A stretch of DNA of 64,000 nt, taken from a bacterium (lineage in GTDB: Archaea; Thermoplasmatota; E2; JACPAO01; JAHFTW01). The DNA lies in the NCBI GenBank assembly GCA_040390065.1, contig JAZJZE010000011.1:1-64000 (forward strand), in the 5' to 3' direction. The translations under genes and the position numbers were made by a program. Below the pieces are notes generated by a model. It was not told the origin of the DNA. It saw only the letters and a list, made by a program, of their open reading frames with translations, and searched no databases. Each line of letters begins with the position of its first letter. The stretch's first letter is position 1. This document shows positions 6,597 to 18,528 of the stretch, one piece after another.

Positions 6597-6826
6597 GCCC
6601 CGTTGGCCGACGGCCGCGCGACTGTAGCGGTGAAGACGTCCGCCTTCGACCTGCAAACAGGTCGTTCATTTGCGTCGTGATGCCACATAGCGGCGGGGGG
6701 CGCTGCCCCCCGCGCCTGTCCCCCCGCGAGGGGACTGCGTCCCCCTCGGCCCCCTGCCGGCTCGCCCTACGGGCTCGCCCCGTTGGCCGACGGCCGCGTG
6801 ACCGTGGCGGTAAAGACGTCCGCCTT
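6597..6826. repeat. 50-bp direct repeat (6597-6646 / 6777-6826) duplicating the 3' end of the BNR gene, with GC hairpins between
   Basis: 46/50 identical, offset 180 bp; hairpins GCGGGGGGCGCTGCCCCCCGC and GGGGACTGCGTCCCC lie between the copies. Confidence 0.85.
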
Positions 6827-8398
6827 GTGATTCCTCGTGTCGACCCACACAGGATGGGCCGCGCCCCACGACGACGCCGTCTGCCGGTAGTCGCCGAGGA
6901 AGATGGCGCCGTTCTGGTGGTGGCTGTACTGCTCGTCGCTCGACGAGTTCGAGACGCGTAGTGGTGACGAGAAGGTGCGGCCGCCGTCCAGGCTGAAGGC
7001 GTAGAACGTGTCGAAGAGGTGGTTGTTCGGGTCGACGCGGCGGTCCTGCCACGCCAGGTCCACGGTGCCGTCCGGTCCGGCGCTGACGTCCGGCATGAAC
7101 TGGTCGCCGCGCTGGCTCCCGTCGTCTGCGGCGATGTCGTGGATCCACGCCACAGGCGTCCAGGTGCGGCCACCGTCGTGGCTTGCCGTGAGCATCGTGC
7201 GGCCCGAGCCTGACTTGGCGTCCATCCACGTCACATAGATGGAGCCCCCGAAGGGGCCGGAGCTGCGGTCCACCGACAGGCTGGGGAAGCCGCTGACGCG
7301 GAACGCCGAGCCGTTCAAGGACGAGAAGCCGTTCATGAGGGCGTTGACGGGGTCGGTGTAGTTGCCGACCAGGGTGGGTTGCGACCAGCGCAATCCGTCC
7401 TGGCTGTGCAGGACGACGATGTGCCCGCCCGAGCCGACGGCGCCCATGTAGGCTGTGCCGTTGGCGGCGAAGTCGACCCATGGAACGTAGACGTCGCCGG
7501 CGACGGGGAGGCCCCCCGCCTGGTCGGGCTGCGTCCAGGAGGCGCCTTGGTTCGCGGAAGTGGCGCAGACGGTGCGGGCCGGGACGGGTTGGTCGGCGGG
7601 GACCGGCGGATCCGGGTAGGGTGGAGCGCCGACGCCTTGAGTCAAGGCGTTGTAGTCGTCGCGCACGGCGCCGGACGCCCAGGCGTCCTGGTCCCAGCAT
7701 AGAAGGACGAGGCCGCTGGAGTGGCCGGGCGTGGCCGGGCCGACGGCAATCCACATCTTGTCGTTCTGCAGGCGCGGCCCGAAGGCGACCTGGACCGGTG
7801 CGCCCCATGTGTCGCCGCCGTCGTGCGACGTGAGGACGTACATGGCGCTGCAGGTCCAGAACCAGTCGTTGAGGCCGCCCGGCGGGATGTTGCCGCGGCC
7901 CGTTGCGGAACCGGATGCCGGGTCGCACTGGTACGGCATGACCGCCCAGTACGCTGAACCATCGGGGCCGAAGGCGACGACCGGGTCCGTGGCGCAGTAG
8001 AAGCGCGACAGGCCCTGGGGGTCCACTTGCGGCTGTTGCCCCGCGGCGGCGTCGGCGCGCGCCTTCCACGGCGAGTACGGCAGGTTGGCGTTCTTCCAAG
8101 TCGCCCCGCCATCATGGCTCGAGTAGATGCCGTCCCAGACGCATTCGCCGGCAAACGGCTGCGTGTAGTCCTTCCCCGTCGCGATGATGTTGAGCGCGTT
8201 CTTCGGGTTCACGGCGACCGAGAGTTCGTTGGCTTGGCGCGAGACCGGGTCGACGGTGACCTGCTGGTTCACGTGACCGCCCACCGCGACGACTTGCGCG
8301 GCGGCGATGTCCGCCGGCGGCTGCGTCTCGGTGCAGCCGGCGAACAACGGGACGGCGGCAAGGAGGGCAAGAAGGGACGCCATGGCGGCAGGACGCAT
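6767..8398 (-). CDS. BNR/Asp-box (sialidase-like) beta-propeller lipoprotein
   Basis: Lipobox FAGC; repeated SHDGGATW, SHDGGDTW, SHDGGRTW, SLDGGRTF. Confidence 0.88.
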   Translation of the reverse strand: MRPAAMASLLALLAAVPLFAGCTETQPPADIAAAQVVAVGGHVNQQVTVDPVSRQANELSVAVNPKNALNIIATGKDYTQPFAGECVWDGIYSSHDGGATWKNANLPYSPWKARADAAAGQQPQVDPQGLSRFYCATDPVVAFGPDGSAYWAVMPYQCDPASGSATGRGNIPPGGLNDWFWTCSAMYVLTSHDGGDTWGAPVQVAFGPRLQNDKMWIAVGPATPGHSSGLVLLCWDQDAWASGAVRDDYNALTQGVGAPPYPDPPVPADQPVPARTVCATSANQGASWTQPDQAGGLPVAGDVYVPWVDFAANGTAYMGAVGSGGHIVVLHSQDGLRWSQPTLVGNYTDPVNALMNGFSSLNGSAFRVSGFPSLSVDRSSGPFGGSIYVTWMDAKSGSGRTMLTASHDGGRTWTPVAWIHDIAADDGSQRGDQFMPDVSAGPDGTVDLAWQDRRVDPNNHLFDTFYAFSLDGGRTFSSPLRVSNSSSDEQYSHHQNGAIFLGDYRQTASSWGAAHPVWVDTRNHKADVFTATVTRPSANGASP

Positions 8399-8526
8399 GC
8401 CCGGGACGGACCCGCGCCGGCCCTTGAGCGTTGTGTCGGGACGCCTTGGCAGTTGCCGGGGCACCACGACAGTGAAGCGACAGATGTTATGTAGCGGCCC
8501 GGAATGGCCGCCCCCAGGTGCACCTG

Positions 8527-9120
8527 ATGTCCCGCCTCCTGATTCTGTTGGCCACCGCTGTGGTCTTGTTTGCCCCGACCGCAACCGCCGGTCCCACAGA
8601 CCCGACGGTCGCCGTCGCCCTTGCCAACCCGCCCACCGAAGTGACGGCGCAGGGCAGCACGGGAGTCCCCCTCACCTTCAACATCGGCGTGCAAAACATC
8701 TACTGCCTGCCCGGCCCCGGCCACCTCACCATCACCCTTGTGGCCTCGGGCAGCGACGGCAATGCAACGGGCAACAGCACCGGCATTTCGGCATCCATCA
8801 GCCCGGGAAGCGTTGACATCCTACTGCCGACGGCCATGCAAGACTACACGACCACCTCGAGCGCGACGTTGACGCTCAGCGCCAAGGCCAGCGGCAAGGG
8901 GACCGTCACCGTGACGCCCACGATCGGCGCCTTGACCGGCTGCACTGGCGTGACGCCATCCGGCACGGGCACGCCTACGTCCATCCCTGTCGTCTTCAAC
9001 CTGTCCGGCAGCACGATGACCGCGACGGGCGCCGACGAGGCACCTGTGCCGGGCCTTGACCTGCCGCTCTTGGCAATCGCCGTCGTCGGCGCCGTGCTCT
9101 TGGCCCGCCGCAAGCAGTAA
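8527..9120 (+). CDS. Secreted Thr/Gly-rich protein with C-terminal PGF-CTERM-like sorting signal
   Basis: Signal peptide; C-terminal VPGL + TM helix + RRKQ. Confidence 0.8.
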   Translation: MSRLLILLATAVVLFAPTATAGPTDPTVAVALANPPTEVTAQGSTGVPLTFNIGVQNIYCLPGPGHLTITLVASGSDGNATGNSTGISASISPGSVDILLPTAMQDYTTTSSATLTLSAKASGKGTVTVTPTIGALTGCTGVTPSGTGTPTSIPVVFNLSGSTMTATGADEAPVPGLDLPLLAIAVVGAVLLARRKQ

Positions 9121-9125
9121 GCGAC

Positions 9126-10043
9126 TTACTTGGCCGAGGCGGCCTTCAACCACTGCTCGATGCGTGCGCGCAACGCCGCAAACGATTGCGCCGAGTGCAA
9201 TTGCTCCTCGCCGACGCCGAAGTGGAAGTCGTAGCCGTGGCCGATTGCGGCGGCCTGCTCTTGCGGCATGCCGTTGCCTGGACTGCGCACGAAGACCAGG
9301 ACCGAGAACGCGAGGTCGAGGCGGCGCAGCTGCAATGCGTCGAAGGCCAGCGCCTTGAGGTCCGCGGCACCGATGGAGCTGGGCACGATGTCCAACATGA
9401 GGAGGGCGCCGTTCTCGAGTTCGATGACGAGGTCCGCGGCGTGGCTTGTCGCGTGGCCCTCAGGGAGAGGGAGCATCAGGTTGTGCTGGGTGCGCACGAC
9501 GCCGGCGCCGATCTTCGGGTGGACGACGAAGTGCGAGCCCTTGGGCTGCTGCACCTTCGTCCCTGGCGCGCCGATGTCGCGGAACAGGGCTTCGGCGAGG
9601 ACTGAGCGCGCCAGAGGGATGGAACCACCGTCCAGCGTCAGGCCGAGCGCACGTGATGCCGGCGGCGGTGCGCTGGGCGGCGCAGCGGCGGGCGCCGCCG
9701 CCTGGTTTCCCAGCTTGCGCGGTTTGGCGGCAGGCAGGGGCGGCGCTCCTGGGACCTGCATCGGGGGCGCGCCCGCCAGGTGGACGTCCAGGCCGCCTGG
9801 GACGTTCGTGCCGGGCGGCGGGACTTCCTGGTGGTCCGCGTTGAGGACGATCGCCTTGCCGTGGCGCACCGGCACGGGTTCTGTGATCACGGTGATCTCG
9901 TCGTCGCGCACTTCGTCGAGCACGCGCTGCGCAGGGTCGCGCGGCTTGGTCGGGTCGGCGGCGCCGCGGCGCTTGGGCTGCACGGACTTGAAGCCGGTGC
10001 GGCCCATGAGGTCGCCTTTGAGGGTCTTCTTGACGATGCGCAC
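9126..10043 (-). CDS. Hypothetical protein (Pro-rich linker, C-terminal alpha/beta domain)
   Basis: Good codon bias; GTG start preceded by AGGTGA; divergent from the actin operon. Confidence 0.7.
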   Translation of the reverse strand: MRIVKKTLKGDLMGRTGFKSVQPKRRGAADPTKPRDPAQRVLDEVRDDEITVITEPVPVRHGKAIVLNADHQEVPPPGTNVPGGLDVHLAGAPPMQVPGAPPLPAAKPRKLGNQAAAPAAAPPSAPPPASRALGLTLDGGSIPLARSVLAEALFRDIGAPGTKVQQPKGSHFVVHPKIGAGVVRTQHNLMLPLPEGHATSHAADLVIELENGALLMLDIVPSSIGAADLKALAFDALQLRRLDLAFSVLVFVRSPGNGMPQEQAAAIGHGYDFHFGVGEEQLHSAQSFAALRARIEQWLKAASAK

Positions 10044-10645
10044 GGCGTCACCTGACAGGAGGGGGCACCACTTGGGCCATGGCAACGCCGCAGCGCCGTG
10101 CCCTGGCCTTCGCCGTGCATCCCATCCGATGGGCGCGACACCGTGGCCGGGCATAGCGTTTTCCATGCGAAACGGTGCTTCAGGATGGCGAATTTTGCGA
10201 TTTCCAGGCACGACAATCCGCTGGCTTCTCCAATAACATCATCAGAATAGATTGAATGTTTTTCCCTGTCGGCGCAAGTGCTCTCGACGGCCGTCCAAGC
10301 TGCCGGGACGAACGCTACGAGCGCGCAATGGCCGGCTGGACGGCCAAGGCCATCATTTCCGGTCGACGGTCCGAGCCTCCTGCCGCGTCCCGTCGGTCGC
10401 ATTGGACCCATGCGATGGACCCGAAACCCATCGTCCGGGCCTGCCGCGCTTGGCCTGTGCCCCGTTTCCTGCGTCTCGACCGGCGACCCGTCGCAACAGA
10501 AGGTGAAAACGGGTTTCCTCCTGGCGAGGGCATAACCGTAAATAGGCCCCCCCCTTCGAGGGGTTCCAACCACGAATATCCAGGAGAGTCCCTTCGGGGA
10601 CCTCCGGGACAATTCTGGTACCACCACATTTTGGAGGCTACTGAC

Positions 10646-11668
10646 ATGGCAAAGGGACTGGATGTCGGCACGATGAACATCATCGCCGCCGAGCGCCACG
10701 GGGACAAGACCACACTCACGCAGCAGCGCAACTCGTTCGTCGAGATCGAGTACTCCGACGTTGCTGAAAAGATGCTGGCGCGCAGCGACGTGCTCTACAT
10801 CAAGAAGGACAACCAAGTCTTCATCGTCGGTGAAGACGCGTTGAACTTCGCCAACATCTTCAACACGGCGACGCGCCGCCCGATGCAGAAGGGCATCCTG
10901 TCGCGCGACGAGAAGTCGGCCATCCCGATGATCCGCTTGATCATCGAGCGCCTGGTCGGCGCCCCGAAGGAGTCCGGCGAGATCCTGTACTACACGTCCC
11001 CGGCCCGCCCGGTCGACGCCCCGAACCAGGACGTCCTGTACCACCAGAAGACCATCGAGTCCATCCTGCGCAAGCTGGACTACACGCCCCGCGTCATCAA
11101 CGAAGGCATGGCCGTCGTCTACTCGGAGCTCGCGGACAACCAGTTCACCGGTCTCGGCGTCTCGTTCGGCGCCGGCATGACCAACATGTGCGTCTCGCAC
11201 TACGGTCTCCCGGTCATGACGACCGCAGTCGCCCGCGGCGGCGACTGGATCGACCAGCAGGTCGCTGAGGCGACCGGCCACTCCAAGGACCGCGTCACCG
11301 CAATCAAGGAGCGCGAATTCGAGATCAACCCGGAGAACCCGGCCGGCGAGGTCCAGAGCGCCCTCACCATCTACTACGACAACCTCGTCGAGTACGCCAT
11401 CCGCACCCTGAAGCGCGAGCTCGCCAAGGCGAAGGTCGAGGAAGGCCTCACGATCCCGGTCGCCATCACTGGCGGAACGGCCTCGTGCAAAGGCTTCAAG
11501 GACCTCTTCGAGCGCCGCATCTACGAGGCCAACCTGCCCTTCGAGATCTCGAAGGTCAAGATGGCCCGCAGCCCGCTCTACTCGGTCGCCATGGGCACCC
11601 TCGTCGCCGCTCGCGCTGAAGAAGCCGAGACCCTCGAGGAACTCGTCGCAGTCGACTCGAAGAAGTAA
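10646..11668 (+). CDS. volA: Volactin-like actin-fold ATPase
   Basis: MAKGLDVGTMNI phosphate-1, QQRNSFVEIEYSD, RRPMQKGIL, INEG, GVSFGAGMTN phosphate-2, ITGGTA adenosine motif; GGAGG RBS; recalled similarity to haloarchaeal volactin. Confidence 0.88.
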   Translation: MAKGLDVGTMNIIAAERHGDKTTLTQQRNSFVEIEYSDVAEKMLARSDVLYIKKDNQVFIVGEDALNFANIFNTATRRPMQKGILSRDEKSAIPMIRLIIERLVGAPKESGEILYYTSPARPVDAPNQDVLYHQKTIESILRKLDYTPRVINEGMAVVYSELADNQFTGLGVSFGAGMTNMCVSHYGLPVMTTAVARGGDWIDQQVAEATGHSKDRVTAIKEREFEINPENPAGEVQSALTIYYDNLVEYAIRTLKRELAKAKVEEGLTIPVAITGGTASCKGFKDLFERRIYEANLPFEISKVKMARSPLYSVAMGTLVAARAEEAETLEELVAVDSKK

Positions 11669-11703
11669 TCGCCTCGACGCGATAGGCCACCCGAGGATGC
11701 ACT

Positions 11704-12747
11704 ATGTCTGAACTTGAGAACCAATACTCCAGCTTGTTCGGTACCAAGACTTCGAAGGGCCAGTTGCGCGGAGGATTCCTCCTCCTCGCACTCGGCGTCG
11801 TCCTCGGTCTGGCCGCCCTTATTCTCTTTTTCCTATCCTACCAGGCCACCGGCCAGGACCAGACCACGTGGCGCCACCTGGCGCTGCCCCTGGGAACTGC
11901 TGCCTTCGGCCTGATCCTGCTGGGCATCACCGTTGCCCTGCCGACCACCACCGGGCTGCGCGTTGCCGCCTGGGTCGGGATCGTGTGCACGCTCGGCGGC
12001 GCGATGCTGCTGGCGTTCCACTACCCGAACAACTTCAACGTCTCGGCGCAGAACCGCGGCAAGGGTGTCGCGGACTACCTGCCCCTTGACCTCGGCCTGT
12101 ACGTCATCGGCCTTGGCCTGCAACTTGCGGCCATCGTGTCGAGCATCGTGGGCTTCTACCTCGGCCGCGTCGGCCCCGCCGCAAAGGCGGAGGGCGACGA
12201 GGACGACGAGACCTACGGCCCCGGCTACGAGGTCCCCGACTGGGTCGTCGAGCGCGACATCGAGTACGCCATGAAGAAGTTCGGCGTCGAAGTCGTGGGC
12301 GGCAAAGGCTCGGCATCGGCCGGCATGAAGGTCAACATCAACGACTCCTTCGGCGCCAACATGACGATCGGCGGCCTCGGCAAGGCCCGCACGGTCCAAC
12401 TGGACTCGACGCAGGTCGACGAGGGTGTCACGCAGCTCTCCGGTGTCCGCCCCAACAAGAAGGGCGCGCTGCCGGGCGAGTGGGCGGACGAGTCCACGAA
12501 GGCCCTCATCGCCTTCCGCAAGCAGAAGTCGGCCAACCCGACCATGTACACTCCCAAGAAGCGTGGATTCTGGGCCCGCCTGTTCGGCGGCCGCTCCAAG
12601 GCCACGCCTGCCGCAAGCGGCGCATCGGCGGCCCCCAAGGCCGCGGTCCCGACCAACGGCAACACGGGCAAATTCGTCGGCCGCGGCAAGACCATCGTCA
12701 TCGACGATGAGGCCCCGGCACGCGGCAAGAAGGGCGGCTCCAACTGA
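11704..12747 (+). CDS. Four-TM membrane protein with cytoplasmic tail (DUF7139-like, volactin-associated)
   Basis: Four TM helices with LP...YPNNFN...DY...LY pattern; VERDIEYAM motif in the tail. Confidence 0.75.
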   Translation: MSELENQYSSLFGTKTSKGQLRGGFLLLALGVVLGLAALILFFLSYQATGQDQTTWRHLALPLGTAAFGLILLGITVALPTTTGLRVAAWVGIVCTLGGAMLLAFHYPNNFNVSAQNRGKGVADYLPLDLGLYVIGLGLQLAAIVSSIVGFYLGRVGPAAKAEGDEDDETYGPGYEVPDWVVERDIEYAMKKFGVEVVGGKGSASAGMKVNINDSFGANMTIGGLGKARTVQLDSTQVDEGVTQLSGVRPNKKGALPGEWADESTKALIAFRKQKSANPTMYTPKKRGFWARLFGGRSKATPAASGASAAPKAAVPTNGNTGKFVGRGKTIVIDDEAPARGKKGGSN

Positions 12748-12770
12748 GGGCCGCCAACGAGGCGGTCACC

Positions 12771-15017
12771 ATGAGCAAAGCAAACCCCGCAGACGAGGCC
12801 CAGAAGAGGGCGGCCCGCATGGCTGCCTTCAGCTCCAAGGTCACCGAGGAAGAGGACGCGGCCGTCGCCGTGCGCTCCTTCAATGAGGCCAAGGCGGGCT
12901 CCGCCGGTTCCAAGGAGTACGACCCGAAGACCGGCGCCGTCAGGGCCGGCGCGGGCGGTTCCGCCCCGGGGCCCAAGGCCAACGTCAAGACGGTCTCGGA
13001 CGACGAGTTGTTTGCCGAGATCGACGCCGCCGTGGCTGCCGAGGAGAAGAAGAGCGGCCGCACCGTGGTCGAACCTGTTGCACCGCCCGTCGAGGCCCCC
13101 AAGCCGTCGGCGCCTGCGGCCCTTTCCGCGAAGCGTTTGGCCGCAATGGCCGCCGCCGCGGTGGACCGCCCCGAGGTGCGCGACACGAGCACGCCGGCCA
13201 AGGAGGCCGCAGCCCGTCTCGTCGACTTGGGCGATGTCGAGGTCCAGAAGCCGGTCGCGTCGCGGCCGAAGCACCTGGACACCGACGAGGCGTCCTTCGA
13301 GGTCAACGCCCCGAAGGCGTCCGCCCCGCGTCACCTCTCCCCCGCCGTGACGGAGGGCGAAATCGACATCCGCGCGCCCAAGCCGCACGCCGTGTCGGCT
13401 GGCACCGGCAAGAGCGGCGCCGGCCACTTCGACGTCAAGCGTGACGCCGCCGAGGCGTCGGCCCCCCTCAAGATCCGCAGCCCCACCGAGGACGAGTTCT
13501 CGGTCAAGATGGACAAGGAGGACAAGCCGGCGCCCAAAATCCAGTCGCCGGCCGAGTCGGAGTTCGCAGTCAAGTCGGACGCGCAGAGCTCCGACCTTGC
13601 CAAGTCCGCGACGGAGAAGGTCCAGGAGCTCGTCGACGCCGCGCAGCCCATCGAGCTGCCGCGCAAGGCCTCCAAGCCGGCCGCCGCGCCGCTGCCGCAC
13701 CGGAAAGCCGAGATCCATCATGAGGCCCGGCGCGAGCTGCCCCGCATGAAGTCGCCCGGCGACGAGAGCATCACGACCCACCGCGACGCTCAAGCCAAGC
13801 CGCTGCCGCACATGCGCAGCGCGGGCGACGAGACGTTCGCCACTCGTCGCGATGCGGAGTCCAGCAAGCATGCGCCCAAGCTGCGCAGCGCGGGCGACGA
13901 GGCGGTCGCAGTGAAGCGCGACGCGGAGTCGCGCATGCCGCCCACCCTCGCCGCGCTTGCAGAGGCCAACTTCGAGACGCGCACGGACCGCCGCGAGGGC
14001 GAGGCCGCGCCGAAGCTACGCTCGCCCGCCGATTCCGCCTTCGAGGCCCGTCAGGACCGCGACCAGCGCGAGACACCAAAGTTCCGCGCCCAGGGCGAGG
14101 CCCTGTTCGAGGCCAAGCAGGACCGTGAGCACCGCGAGGCGCCGAAGCTGCGCAGCCCCGCCGAGGCGCATTTCGAGGCCAAGCAGGACCGTGAGCACCG
14201 CGAGGCGCCGAAGCTGCGCAGCCCCGCCGAGGCGAAGTTCGAGGCCAAGGTCGACCGCCGCGAGTCCGACCTGCCCAAGTTCCGTTCCCCAGGAGAAGCC
14301 TCGTTCGAGGCGAAACAGGACAAGGAGCAGCGCACCATGCCGAAGTTCCGAGCCGCCGAGACACCGTTCGAGGCCAAGGTCGACCGCCGCGAGTCGGATC
14401 TGCCCAAGTTCCGCGCGCCCGGCGAATCGGCCTTCGAGGCCAAGATGGACAAGGAGCACCGCGAGATGCCGAAGTTCCGTTCACCGGCTGACGCCCAGTT
14501 CGAGACGAAGCGGGACGCCGAAGCCAAGCCCCTGCCGAAGATCCGTTCACCGGCTGACGCCCAGTTCGAGACGCGCCGCGACGCCGAGGCCAAGCCTCTG
14601 CCGAAACTGCGCTCGCCGACCGAGGGCCACATCGAGGCCAAGCAGGACGCCCGCGCGAAGGAGCTGCCCCGCATGCGCAGCCCTGCCGACGTCGAGGCGT
14701 TCGAGACGCGCCGCGACGCCGAGGCCAAGCCGTTGCCGCGCATGCGCAACGCGACGGACGCCGACAGCTACGAGGCCAAGCTGGCCTGGCAGCAGAAGAA
14801 GGTCACCGGCATGGTGAGCGCCGCCGACGCCGAGGCGTACGACACGAAGCACGACCGCGAGACGCGCGAGCGCAGCCACGTCAACAACCCTGGCCAAGGC
14901 GAATTCGATGTCAAGATGGAGCACGAATCCGTCTGGACGACGCAACCGCGCCGTGATATCGACGCAGCGTCGATTGAAGGCAAGGGTGCCTCCAAGCCGA
15001 AGTCCAAGAAGGCGTAG
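12771..15017 (+). CDS. Charged tandem-repeat protein (about 20 copies of a ~22-aa repeat)
   Basis: Repeat consensus PK[LF]RSP[AG][ED]xxFE[AT]KxD[RKA]Exxxx; strong codon bias; co-oriented with the actin gene. Confidence 0.88.
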   Translation: MSKANPADEAQKRAARMAAFSSKVTEEEDAAVAVRSFNEAKAGSAGSKEYDPKTGAVRAGAGGSAPGPKANVKTVSDDELFAEIDAAVAAEEKKSGRTVVEPVAPPVEAPKPSAPAALSAKRLAAMAAAAVDRPEVRDTSTPAKEAAARLVDLGDVEVQKPVASRPKHLDTDEASFEVNAPKASAPRHLSPAVTEGEIDIRAPKPHAVSAGTGKSGAGHFDVKRDAAEASAPLKIRSPTEDEFSVKMDKEDKPAPKIQSPAESEFAVKSDAQSSDLAKSATEKVQELVDAAQPIELPRKASKPAAAPLPHRKAEIHHEARRELPRMKSPGDESITTHRDAQAKPLPHMRSAGDETFATRRDAESSKHAPKLRSAGDEAVAVKRDAESRMPPTLAALAEANFETRTDRREGEAAPKLRSPADSAFEARQDRDQRETPKFRAQGEALFEAKQDREHREAPKLRSPAEAHFEAKQDREHREAPKLRSPAEAKFEAKVDRRESDLPKFRSPGEASFEAKQDKEQRTMPKFRAAETPFEAKVDRRESDLPKFRAPGESAFEAKMDKEHREMPKFRSPADAQFETKRDAEAKPLPKIRSPADAQFETRRDAEAKPLPKLRSPTEGHIEAKQDARAKELPRMRSPADVEAFETRRDAEAKPLPRMRNATDADSYEAKLAWQQKKVTGMVSAADAEAYDTKHDRETRERSHVNNPGQGEFDVKMEHESVWTTQPRRDIDAASIEGKGASKPKSKKA

Positions 15018-15077: not shown

Positions 15078-16766
15078 TCAATTCTTGCGGCGACGGCCTG
15101 CGATGAGGAACACCGTCGGCACGGTGATGACTGCTGCCAGGGCGCCTGCGGCCCCCACAAGGGGCCATGGGATGCCGCGTCCGAGGGGGCTTGCACCGCT
15201 GGTCCCGGACGTCGGAACGCTTGCCGCAAGCAGCCGGAACTCGGGCTGGCATGCGTCGCCAACACCGTCGTGGTTGGCGTCGGTCTGGTCGCCGTTTGGT
15301 TCGGTGGGGCAGTTGTCCAGGAAGGTGTGCTGCACCACGTCATCCGCAAACGGTTCGTTGGGGACGCCGTCGCCGTCGATGTCGGGGTCGCAGGAATCGC
15401 CCAGGAGGTCCTCGTCCATGTTGGCTTGCTCGCGGTTGGCCGTGGCCGGACAGTTGTCGCGTGCGTCGGGCACGCTGTCGTAGTCCAGGTCGCTGGGCTG
15501 TGCCGGAGGCGGCGGCGGGGGCGGCGGCGGGTTGCCTGTGATGCACATGCCGCCGCTGCTTCGGGCCGAATCCGCGGCCCACGTCTTGCCCGATGGGCAT
15601 GGCGTGGGGTCGCAGGGGTCGCCGATAGAGTCCAGGTCCGAGTCCTCCTGTTCGTGGTTGGGCACCGCGGCACAGTTGTCGGACCGGTCCTCGATGCCGT
15701 CGAGGTCGGAGTCGAGGGAACTGGAGCGTTCGTTGTCCTCCACCGGGTGGTCGCACGTCATCACGAAGGCGGTGCTGGCGGCGCGGCCGAAGACGCCGGA
15801 GCCGGCGGCGAAGATCATGTCGGGTCCCGTCACCGCTCCCGAGGCCATCTCGCTGGAGGCAATGAGCATGGAGCCCATGGTGTGCCACTGCCACGTCGTC
15901 GGGTCGAGGGCTTCCACCACGTCGACATTGAAGTTGCTGACCGTGCCGCCGATCACGAACAAGTCGCCGCCGCACAGGCCTGCGATGGCGTTGGCGCGCG
16001 GTGTCGGCATCGCGGGGCCCAGGCTCCAGGCGTTCGTGCCGGGGTCGAAGATCTGCACGAGGCCGATGTCGGTCCCCGCGCCCGGGCCGGTCTCGCCGCC
16101 GAAGACGTACACCTTGCCGTTGTAGGCCAGCGTGGCGTACACGTCGGCGGCCGCCGTCGGCATCGCCGGCCCCGTCGTCCAGGAGTCCGTCGCTACGTGG
16201 TAGATCTCCATGGTATTGATTGGTGGCCCGCAGTAGGGGGCGGCGCAGAGGCGGCCACCGACGACGTAGATGTCGTTGCCGATGACGGCGGAGCCCAATC
16301 CGGCCCGGGCCGTCGGCATGGGGGCTCCCGTACTCCAGGAATTGGCCACCGGGTCGTAGATCTCCACGTTGTTGCAGACCGGACTGCACGGTTTGCCGCC
16401 GATGGCGTACAGGGAAGCATGGCCATTGGGGGCGACGGCTACGGCGCCCGTCAGCTCCGAGCGCCCCACCGAGGCCGCCGGGAGGGTCGTCCACGTATCG
16501 GCGACGGGGTCGTAGGCCGACAGCGGTGTCCCCATGGGATAGCCGTGGCTGACGTAGAACTTCCCGCCGATGTAGCCGCCGGCCATGCCTTCAAGACCGG
16601 TCCCCAGAGGAGCCCCGGCTTGCCAGGTCGTGGTCGGAAGGGCAGCCGCCGACGAGGCGTGCGCCAGGAGCGGCAGCATGACCAAGCAGGCGCCGCCCGC
16701 CACGAGAAACAACGCCACCCGCCGGCTCGGCAATGGCCAGCGCACGCGACCGGACTCGTCCACCAT
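15078..16766 (-). CDS. Kelch-repeat beta-propeller + thrombospondin type 3 repeat surface protein
   Basis: Kelch repeats (IYVVGG, YDPVANSWSTGAPMPTAR), DxDxDG..DNC TSP3 repeats, C-terminal TM + RRRK. Confidence 0.9.
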   Translation of the reverse strand: MVDESGRVRWPLPSRRVALFLVAGGACLVMLPLLAHASSAAALPTTTWQAGAPLGTGLEGMAGGYIGGKFYVSHGYPMGTPLSAYDPVADTWTTLPAASVGRSELTGAVAVAPNGHASLYAIGGKPCSPVCNNVEIYDPVANSWSTGAPMPTARAGLGSAVIGNDIYVVGGRLCAAPYCGPPINTMEIYHVATDSWTTGPAMPTAAADVYATLAYNGKVYVFGGETGPGAGTDIGLVQIFDPGTNAWSLGPAMPTPRANAIAGLCGGDLFVIGGTVSNFNVDVVEALDPTTWQWHTMGSMLIASSEMASGAVTGPDMIFAAGSGVFGRAASTAFVMTCDHPVEDNERSSSLDSDLDGIEDRSDNCAAVPNHEQEDSDLDSIGDPCDPTPCPSGKTWAADSARSSGGMCITGNPPPPPPPPPAQPSDLDYDSVPDARDNCPATANREQANMDEDLLGDSCDPDIDGDGVPNEPFADDVVQHTFLDNCPTEPNGDQTDANHDGVGDACQPEFRLLAASVPTSGTSGASPLGRGIPWPLVGAAGALAAVITVPTVFLIAGRRRKN

Positions 16767-16847: not shown

Positions 16848-18464
16848 TCAGATGACGGTGCCGTGGCCCTTCCTGGGCAATGGCAGGTGCTTGTTGCTGG
16901 CCGCCTCGAGTCGGGCGATGACTTCGCTGCGTAGTTGGCTGGGAGGGACGATGTGGTCGACGATGAGGTCGTTGGCGGCAGCGTGGATGTCGACGTCGCG
17001 GTTGTATTCCGCCCGCTTGTCGGCGATGAAGCGCTCACGCTCACGCGGGTCCGCGATCTTTGCGATGTGGTTGGCGTACACGGCGTTGATGGCGGCTTCG
17101 GCCCCCATGACGGCGATCTCCGCTCCAGGAAGGGCCAGGGTCGCCTCCGGTTCGAAGGCGGGGCCGCACATGGCGTAGATGCCGGCGCCGTATGCCTTGC
17201 GGATGACGATGCAAAGTTTCGGGACCGTCGCCGTGGACGTCGCGTAGATGAAGCGCTTGCCCCGCTTCAGGATGCCTTGCGCCTCGACGGCCGAACCGAC
17301 CATGAATCCGGGCGTGTCGCACAGGTACAGAAGCGGGATGTTGTAGGCGTCGCAGGTGAGGATGAACTCGGCCGCCTTGTCCGCGGATTGCGGGAAGATG
17401 GCGCCCGCCCGGTGCGCGGTGTTGTTGGCGACGACGCCGACCACGATGCCGCCGACGCGGGCCAGTCCCGTGATGAGTTCCTGCGCGTGGCCGGGCTTGA
17501 TCTCGAGCCATGAGCCGCCGTCGACGAGCGTGTGGATGGCCTCGTGCATGTCGAATGCCTTGTTGGGGTCGGCCGGCACGAGCATCTCGAGCTCCGTTGG
17601 GCTGCGTTCCGGTTGCTCCGGTGCGAAGCGGGGCGGCCGCTCGTCGCAGTTGTCCGGCAGGTACGACAGGAGGCGCCACACGGCTTCGGCGGCCTCATCC
17701 TCGGAGTCCACGACGAGGTGGCAAGAGCCCGATTCCGTCATGTGGAAATCCGCGCCGCCAAGTTCCTGCATGGTGACCTTCTCCCCCGTCACCATCTCGA
17801 CCATGCGGGGACTGGCGATGCACAGGGCGGCCATGCCGCGCACCATGATGCTGAAGTCGCAGAAGACCGGCGTGTAGGCGGCGCCCGCGACGCATGGGCC
17901 ATACAGCACCGAGATCTGCGGGATCTTTCCCGAGAGGATCGAGTGGTTGTAGAAGTATTTCCCGATGCCGCGGTTGTTGGCGAAGAAGCCGGCCTGGTCC
18001 GTGATGCGCGCGCCGGACGAGTCGATGAGGTAGAGGATGGGCTTCTGCGCCCGCATGGCGCGCTCCTGGACACGCAAGAACTTCTCGACGCCGCGCTCCG
18101 CCATCGAGCCCGCCTTGACGGTGTAATCATTGGCGATGACCATGACCGTGCGCTCGCCCATCTTTCCCGCCCCCGTCACCATGCCGTCGGCGGCCAGCCC
18201 TTCGTCCGCTTTCTGGTTGTTGGCAAACAGGCCGTCCTCGTACGACAGGCCGTCCGGGAAGAACAGCCGCAGCCGGTCGCGCACGAACAGCTTGCCCTCG
18301 TCGCTCAACCTGTCGCGGTACTTCTGCGGGCCGCCCTGCTGCAGCCTGGCGATGGCCTCGAGGAGCTTGGCCTCCCGCGTCGCACCCTTGGCTTCGGGGG
18401 CGGGTTCACTGGGGGCCGGGGCGACGGCGGGCGCGGCGGCCATCGGGGTCCGGCGTGCAGTCAT
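16848..18464 (-). CDS. Acyl-CoA carboxylase, carboxyltransferase subunit
   Basis: DYTVKAGS, DSSGAR, CVAGAAY, DTPGFMVG, RKAYGAG motifs. Confidence 0.95.
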   Translation of the reverse strand: MTARRTPMAAAPAVAPAPSEPAPEAKGATREAKLLEAIARLQQGGPQKYRDRLSDEGKLFVRDRLRLFFPDGLSYEDGLFANNQKADEGLAADGMVTGAGKMGERTVMVIANDYTVKAGSMAERGVEKFLRVQERAMRAQKPILYLIDSSGARITDQAGFFANNRGIGKYFYNHSILSGKIPQISVLYGPCVAGAAYTPVFCDFSIMVRGMAALCIASPRMVEMVTGEKVTMQELGGADFHMTESGSCHLVVDSEDEAAEAVWRLLSYLPDNCDERPPRFAPEQPERSPTELEMLVPADPNKAFDMHEAIHTLVDGGSWLEIKPGHAQELITGLARVGGIVVGVVANNTAHRAGAIFPQSADKAAEFILTCDAYNIPLLYLCDTPGFMVGSAVEAQGILKRGKRFIYATSTATVPKLCIVIRKAYGAGIYAMCGPAFEPEATLALPGAEIAVMGAEAAINAVYANHIAKIADPRERERFIADKRAEYNRDVDIHAAANDLIVDHIVPPSQLRSEVIARLEAASNKHLPLPRKGHGTVI

Positions 18465-18528
18465 GGCCCGGCAAGGTGCGCAGGGCCATTTCAAGGGCAC
18501 GACTGACGCCGAGGCGCCGCAACGACCT

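Follow-up and report, generated by a model that had tools for sequence, protein, structure and literature searches.

In the portions of the published work consulted here, the actin homologue volactin of Haloferax is described as forming dynamic filaments that contact the membrane by their tips only and have a role in cell shape, and its discoverers posed the attachment of the filament tips and the binders of the filaments as questions (PMC10869688). The gene adjoining volactin (HVO_2015) in Haloferax, HVO_2016, is noted as a "CdpA-like protein" with four membrane segments, CdpA itself being an FtsZ-ring membrane anchor in which a disordered linker connects the membrane domain to a small C-terminal domain (PMC12126565), and salactin, which belongs to a sister actin family, aids DNA partitioning (PMC10746226). 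The present study concerns a 64,000-nucleotide stretch of contig JAZJZE010000011.1 (assembly GCA_040390065.1, positions 1 to 64,000 of the forward strand; hereafter the window), in which three consecutive genes encode an actin-fold ATPase (gene 1), a DUF7139 / CdpA-like membrane protein (gene 2), and a repeat protein (gene 3). We regard it as probable that these genes make up a volactin cytoskeleton locus consisting of a filament, a membrane tether, and an accessory specific to the host's order. Genes 1 and 2 are ordinary members of the volactin family and its neighbourhood, and the three-gene set is an order-specific variant.

A first-pass annotation made from the nucleotide sequence and its open reading frames (ORFs) had identified gene 1 as a volactin-like ATPase, and the profile searches agree, as the protein matches Pfam PF25216 at 406.3 bits (cut-off 35; E 1.5e-121) over residues 1-322 of 340 and profile positions 1-321 of 321, compared with 28 bits for MreB, 20 for FtsA, and 14.6 for Salactin among the sister actin families. 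NCBIfam contains no volactin model, and the best match there was MamK at 38 bits, far below the MamK cut-off. Identity ranges from 57 to 61% with 49 haloarchaeal volactins and from 76 to 97% with relatives in the host's own order, and residues D6, G8, T9, G175, G177, T179, G276, and G277 are invariant across 61 aligned volactins including gene 1; we take D6-G8-T9, G175-G177-T179, and G276-G277 to be the phosphate 1, phosphate 2, and adenosine motifs, respectively. A profile search of solved chains returned no volactin structure, the closest entries being the actin-like ATPase chains 5ljw/5jyg (E 1e-7), which are presumably MamK-like; Ta0583 and crenactin were among the solved chains neither in the protein search (E<=1) nor in the profile search (E<=0.01) and are therefore not close sequence relatives. 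Gene 1 shares with Haloferax volcanii VolA the full-length Pfam family, the nucleotide-binding motifs, and the neighbouring gene family, and is 57% identical to the volactin of Haloferax gibbonsii. It differs from the Haloferax volactin in being near-neutral (47 acidic and 41 basic residues), in belonging to a non-halophilic Thermoplasmatota host, and in a reversed gene order that places volactin first. Sampling of 401 genomes per phylum detected volactin in 41 from Thermoplasmatota and in 88 from Halobacteriota.

Gene 2 matches DUF7139 (Pfam PF23600) at 72.4 bits (cut-off 30) over residues 3-153. Its AlphaFold2 model (62-row alignment; mean predicted local distance difference test score, pLDDT, of 71.7) recovered the four membrane helices that had been read from the translation (residues 18-47, 51-78, 83-106, and 126-156; pLDDT >90), followed by a 190-residue tail in which low-confidence stretches join three shorter cytoplasmic helices (179-192, 235-247, and 259-277). 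The cytoplasmic part can be aligned across 62-72 relatives, with D185, A189, W197, G198, D239, L245, D262, and L268 invariant or nearly so, and the final ~65 residues (about 281-347) form a lineage-specific, basic C-terminal tail. No solved relative was found by sequence (best E 0.12). In common with CdpA (HVO_0739), gene 2 combines a four-helix DUF7139 domain with a flexible stretch in the cytoplasm and a C-terminal part, and like HVO_2016 it lies beside volactin, although its identity to the haloarchaeal copies adjacent to volactin is just 20-28%. The known partners of CdpA are division proteins, whereas the predicted partner of gene 2 is volactin.

The pairing of the two genes extends far beyond the host. 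A hidden Markov model of the membrane protein was run on 100 loci (80 from named genomes and 20 further Thermoplasmatota loci). In 90 of them a DUF7139-type gene lies no more than 1.5 kb from volactin, and in one more the distance is 1.7 kb; with the 3 loci cut at a contig end set aside, 91 of the 97 haloarchaeal and Thermoplasmatota loci that can be decided have the two genes side by side. The pair is known in three gene arrangements: the membrane gene lies upstream on the same strand in 68 of the 90 (all haloarchaea and a low-GC Thermoplasmatota family), downstream in 16 (the window's order and one other), and head to head in 6, one of which was scored "convergent" owing to an over-long ORF call. 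The same gene lies directly upstream of volactin in 13 of 14 non-acidic Halobacteriota loci (GC 0.37-0.51, volactins non-acidic). The co-conservation of the membrane gene, on which the first-pass annotation had made its reading depend, thus holds. The pairing is not special to this host; it is what the family shows in general, and for Haloferax the parts of the CdpA study consulted already note it (PMC12126565).

Quick IQ-TREE phylogenies, with Shimodaira-Hasegawa-like approximate likelihood ratio test (SH-aLRT) support only, united the haloarchaeal volactins in one clan (100), with all non-halophile sequences on the other side. With regard to the earlier expectation that gene 1 would cluster with volactin, the protein falls inside the Pfam family but lies, unlike the Haloferax volactin, outside the haloarchaeal clan, in a deep clade of its own order (86-90). 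The volactin and membrane-protein trees recover the same major clades, and both place the low-GC Thermoplasmatota family within the non-acidic Halobacteriota (volactin 97, membrane protein 95-99), a placement that points to transfer of the pair between phyla, as far as the sequences can tell. From the matching clades and the shared nesting, both genes appear to have been inherited, and at least once transferred, together; judged from these trees, the pair is apparently an old co-inherited unit in haloarchaea, non-halophilic Halobacteriota, and Thermoplasmatota. A volactin tree rooted with three salactins was also computed; its two branches were 5 + 5 changes per column long, and the outgroup joined next to the haloarchaea. 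Because of the long branches and the shared acidic composition we regard this root as unreliable and draw no direction of transfer from it.

A physical link between the two proteins was modelled as a complex of volactin (61-row alignment) and gene 2 residues 160-300 (62-row alignment), alongside three controls. The interaction prediction score from aligned errors (ipSAE), which is a model confidence and not a measurement, was 0.83, 0.82, and 0.84 for the pair and 0.00 for the best of the 3 controls, and 58 of 80 solved complexes attain the mark, as do 2 of 110 mismatched pairs; these counts apply only roughly, since the alignments were our own. At least 64% of contacts are shared between runs, and the model supports a predicted binding of volactin to gene 2. 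A pass by memorisation of known structures is unlikely, because no relative of gene 2 (by sequence) and no volactin has been solved. A like complex is likewise missing among solved structures for either protein. The modelled contacts on gene 2 involve residues 170-195 and 219-249, and those on volactin residues 15-27, 48-64, 90-103, 121-143, 159-167, 186-188, and 308-328; the tightest pairs join gene 2 residues 230-233 with volactin 21-25, and gene 2 residues 237-242 with volactin 316-324 and 159-163. The family-wide conserved D185, A189, and L245 lie inside the modelled interface, which also flanks D239, and residues 219-233 are low-confidence when gene 2 is modelled alone, which suggests folding on binding. 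By sequence position, the hinge before phosphate 2 and the C-terminal helix presumably match the cleft between actin subdomains 1 and 3, where many actin binders and ParR dock, so the interface may correspond to the barbed-end cleft; such a site, if right, would be free only at a filament end and would fit the tip attachment seen in Haloferax.

Gene 3 is the part of the locus with the narrowest distribution. Its repeats, already noticed in the first-pass annotation, were recovered with a motif anchor as 17 units in residues 234-680 of a 748-residue protein, with 12 of 16 spacings exactly 22, and Tandem Repeats Finder reported a period of 66 nt (22 residues) together with 129-132-nt arrays at 14007-14636 (scores 166-353); "giant", as the protein had been called, overstates 748 residues. 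The unit core given in Table 1 recurs in 76 units drawn from 9 orthologues, spaced 22 or 23 residues apart, and the orthologues measure 690-941 residues, with a unit number that varies by species. No Pfam or NCBIfam family matches gene 3, and only 32 matches at E<=0.001 were obtained among 1.84 billion representatives. An AlphaFold2 model from a 9-row alignment had a mean pLDDT of 44 and left the repeats without secondary structure, with two C-terminal helices spanning residues 661-701. The N-terminal module carries a conserved motif (RMAAFS...VAVRSF...PKTG) common to gene 3 and to ~290-residue proteins of a sister family; a profile of the latter matches gene 3 at E 2.1e-18 and finds matches in 12 of 197 genomes of the class, namely the window's genome, 9 of 12 others of the genus, and 2 of the sister family, in one of which (G025) the gene 3 relative again follows the membrane gene. 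A search of the ESM Atlas with the N-terminal part of gene 3 returned no usable feature match, and the structure rows all had TM-scores <0.35. Gene 3 is confined to this order and fast-evolving, and the earlier proposal that it acts as a filament-binding scaffold is no more than a guess. In three loci of sister genera (L034, L035, and L038), the third slot is filled by other repeat proteins with a period of ~20 residues.

Taken together, the locus would work as follows. Gene 1 would form an actin-like ATPase filament, as its orthologue does in Haloferax; the conserved cytoplasmic helices of gene 2 would dock on the volactin hairpin 17-27, the hinge 159-167, and the C-terminal helix 308-328; and gene 2 would thereby tether the filaments, most likely their ends, to the membrane. 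Gene 3, added within this order, would encode a largely disordered protein of the cytoplasm that bears some 17-20 short repeated motifs and most likely serves as a multivalent accessory of the filament or the anchor. Actin-like polymers are coupled to cargo or membrane by nearby-encoded adaptors in ParM-ParR, MamK-MamJ, and MreB-RodZ; the present locus resembles these in principle, as a polymer with a nearby-encoded coupling protein, and differs in that the adaptor belongs to an unrelated family, is a polytopic membrane protein, and has a docking site that is modelled only. The cytoskeletal module envisaged in the first-pass annotation is accordingly retained for a volactin with a co-conserved membrane partner of predicted binding, and is narrowed for gene 3: of the two downstream genes whose co-conservation it had made a condition, gene 2 is kept far beyond the lineage and gene 3 within this order only.

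Several observations weigh against this account. Six of the 97 decidable loci have no detectable neighbour of the DUF7139 type (five in Halorubrum, L043, L060, L083, L089, and L093, and one in Natronomonas sp. LN261, L086) within ~7 kb on each side of volactin, or ~3 kb upstream at L083, and the membrane gene is missing at one of the 14 non-acidic Halobacteriota loci (L148). In the complex model the partner has a pLDDT of only 52-56, both the binding and its interface are predictions, and the assignment to the barbed-end cleft was reached from sequence position and general actin anatomy. The expression data count for the account, with limits: contigs at least 85% alike from 4 RNA-library runs in 3 studies (ice, sediment, and soil) cover volactin, and one of them joins the end of volactin (11668) to the start of gene 2 (11704), two further boundary-crossing contigs with <31 letters on one side not being counted, while cover is thin over gene 2 and sparse over gene 3, and the contigs cannot rank the genes; they give a hint of expression, with DNA carry-over possible and no silent control stretch for comparison.

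The remaining points concern gene 3 and favour the possibility that it is a passenger and that the functional unit is the volactin/DUF7139 pair only, an alternative we consider unlikely yet the most serious of those weighed here. None of the 20 other Thermoplasmatota loci, and none of the haloarchaeal ones, has gene 3 next to volactin; genome G029 carries the gene 3 relative on a separate contig, where neither volactin nor a DUF7139 gene occurs in the ~6 kb upstream or ~4 kb downstream; the protein is disordered and without a family; and the same-slot proteins of the sister genera are not demonstrably homologous, as the third gene of L038 compared with gene 3 gave a BLASTP E of 0.87 and an hhalign probability of 2% (E 0.024 over 32 columns). 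A likeness of motifs between gene 3 and the sister-genus repeat proteins can be seen by eye and is only a lead. Against a passenger, gene 3 follows gene 2 on the same strand after a gap of just 23 bp (12748-12770), in sister genera the third gene starts just before or right at the membrane gene's stop (L038, start 8932 against stop 8935; L034), a repeat protein with a 20-22-residue period occupies this slot in at least 4 genera, and all 12 class genomes with a match to the relative profile also carry volactin, these genomes being kin and not independent.

If gene 3 does belong to the cytoskeleton locus, one can speculate, with little confidence, that each 22-residue unit binds one volactin subunit, so that the protein would run along the filament or collect subunits, as a prokaryotic counterpart of nebulin or of nucleators with tandem WH2 domains that sets the length, stability, or nucleation of the filament at the anchor; the variation in unit number among species would then tune filament length. 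In these eukaryotic actin regulators the nebulin unit has ~35 residues, and WH2 has ~17-22 residues with an LKKV-type motif. The likeness is one of design only, in that gene 3 has many short units with a conserved core, is largely unfolded, and lies next to the gene for an actin-type polymer; its sequence is similar to neither, the gene 3 unit has 22 residues, and membership is not claimed.

It is also improbable, to a similar degree, that gene 2 is a division-ring anchor, the true equivalent of CdpA acting with FtsZ and SepF, with its adjacency reflecting a link between division and volactin. Such a role would be consistent with the shared domain plan, with gene 2 being the sole DUF7139 match in this genome (89% complete) where five haloarchaeal genomes have two or three such genes, and with a pull-down of Haloferax CdpA that, in the parts of that report consulted, enriched volactin (Log2FC 2.5, p 0.06; PMC12126565). 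The trees speak against it, as gene 2 lies in a clade of its own order's volactin-adjacent copies (99), while six haloarchaeal CdpA-type copies form their own clade (100), apart from the volactin-adjacent copies (97), so gene 2 falls outside CdpA in the strict sense (HVO_0739 type); the conserved cytoplasmic helices, moreover, are modelled on volactin with the high scores given above against none for the controls. In the five haloarchaeal genomes with several DUF7139 genes, one lies beside volactin and the CdpA-type copy elsewhere, and the trees allow the bolder, improbable reading that tethering of volactin was the ancestral job of DUF7139 and that haloarchaeal CdpA is a later duplicate. The roles of division anchor and volactin anchor are not mutually exclusive.

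That the locus is a DNA-partitioning system like ParM/ParR or salactin, with an actin-like motor and a DNA-binding adaptor, is very improbable: the order of genes recalls the classic partition layout of an actin-like ATPase gene followed by a small adaptor gene, and the short gene 3 relatives of the sister family have long, basic N-terminal tails rich in Lys, Ala, and Pro that could bind nucleic acid, but the window's gene 3 has no such tail, the Pfam and NCBIfam searches found no DNA-binding domain in genes 2 or 3, no centromere-like repeat array of the ParMRC type lies upstream of the ATPase gene (only chance-level two-copy matches of 10-15 nt in 10150-10700), the conserved partner is an integral membrane protein, and the locus is chromosomal and conserved across phyla.

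In the parts consulted of the volactin and CdpA literature (PMC10869688, PMC12126565, PMC10746226, PMC12050087, PMC12186497, and preprints), we did not find a description of the pair outside Haloferax, of the binding interface, or of the repeat protein, and the supplements of these papers may hold distribution data. What we add is the generality of the pair across archaea, its three arrangements, the mirrored trees, and the modelled interface. Volactin is thus not a haloarchaeal speciality and mostly occurs with the same partner, and the spread of both through Thermoplasmatota and Halobacteriota means that results from Haloferax may apply to uncultured archaea of soil, sediment, and groundwater. 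The gene 2 family offers a specific, widely conserved candidate for the tether of volactin tips, with a predicted interface and named residues, so the locus and its relatives turn a one-line hint in the literature into a testable anchor hypothesis, and gene 3 is a possible first disordered, multivalent accessory of an archaeal actin.

The features of the locus are collected in Table 1. The first-pass description of three co-oriented, closely spaced ORFs is accurate (the gap between genes 1 and 2 is 35 bp, 11669-11703), as is its mention of strong codon bias, with a third-position GC of 0.84-0.89 in genes 1-3 against a regional GC of 0.63-0.70. Since the flanking genes (9126-10211 and 15078-16766) lie on the minus strand, the three genes form a self-contained co-oriented block. 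Although the reading frame of gene 1 is open from 10256, the upstream extension is unused: we place the start at 10646 because none of 61 aligned volactins departs from M1 and A2, all of them opening with M-A-K-G-L-D, and because a GGAGG precedes the ATG. GAGG-type motifs weaker than that of gene 1 precede genes 2 and 3, and in all three the motif lies 6-9 nt upstream of the start. A scan of the locus found 4 terminator-like sites against 4.1 expected, and a promoter scan found 0 sigma-70-type sites, a consensus that is not relevant to archaea.

Table 1. Coordinates of the volactin locus and its parts in the window
Feature	Position	Strand	Description
Shine-Dalgarno-like GGAGG	10634-10638	+	8 nt 5' of the volactin ATG; putative, read from sequence
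Gene 1, volA-like	10646-11668	+	Volactin-family actin-fold ATPase, 340 aa (P0001)
Gene 2, DUF7139 / CdpA-like membrane protein	11704-12747	+	347 aa (P0002); counterpart of Haloferax HVO_2016
Four-helix membrane domain of P0002	11755-12171	+	Residues 18-156; AlphaFold2, block pLDDT 90-98
Segment of P0002 predicted to touch volactin	12211-12450	+	Residues 170-249; helices 179-192 and 235-247, strand-like 219-233
Gene 3, repeat protein	12771-15017	+	748 aa (P0003); N-terminal module, disordered 22-aa array, C-terminal helices
N-terminal module of P0003	12786-13052	+	Residues 6-94, pLDDT 60-79; helix, three short strands, helix
22-aa unit array	13464-14810	+	Residues about 232-680; P-[KR]-[MLF]-[RK]-[SN]-x-x-[DE], aromatic at 11-12, D at 16

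The host is a soil or groundwater archaeon that is not salt-loving, and the first-pass annotation was right on both its lineage and its lack of halophily. Among the 120 matches listed for the genome's elongation factor 2, 14 were organism-named, of which 12 bore names beginning with Thermoplasmat, 1 was Euryarchaeota, 1 was WOR-3, and none was haloarchaeal. The median isoelectric point was 7.15 in a crude proteome of 1530 ORFs, compared with 4.48 for 461 ORFs from haloarchaeal loci, and with such a non-acidic proteome the host is not a salt-in halophile.

Additional forms of volactin were encountered in the survey. Some genomes of the same order have a second, very divergent volactin copy right after the membrane gene (L032, 8269-10101; L006/L020; L033, 10314-11294, where the copy is apparently frameshifted), giving the layout volactin, membrane gene, volactin, and in one genome the whole pair is tandem-duplicated. 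In several haloarchaeal genomes (G634:C38:30224-31171, G654, G754, G562, and G759), a second volactin-like domain opens frames of 1184-1253 residues; at the one locus examined for this fused long form (L162), no DUF7139 gene lies beside it. Another Thermoplasmatota family has a much more divergent volactin-like gene at a contig start (L145, G070:C18:126-1142) that scores 225 bits against ~400 for the rest, with no DUF7139 gene within 6 kb downstream.

The surroundings of the locus are partly conserved. The divergently oriented gene at 9126-10211, which encodes 361 residues, holds its place immediately upstream of volactin in 9 loci of the genus and 2 of a sister family (L032 and L033); L034, L035, and L038 do not have it there. 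It may represent a fourth member of the association or simply conserved gene order. A Pfam scan assigned no family to its protein, to a 200-residue secreted neighbour, or to the relatives of the third gene. A secreted BNR-repeat protein is encoded at 6767-8584 on the minus strand, and the product of the gene at 15078-16766 is of surface type, combining Kelch and thrombospondin type-3 repeats with a membrane anchor. That gene is followed by a propionyl-CoA carboxylase-type carboxyl transferase at 16848-18500, whose position after the locus is also kept in L038.

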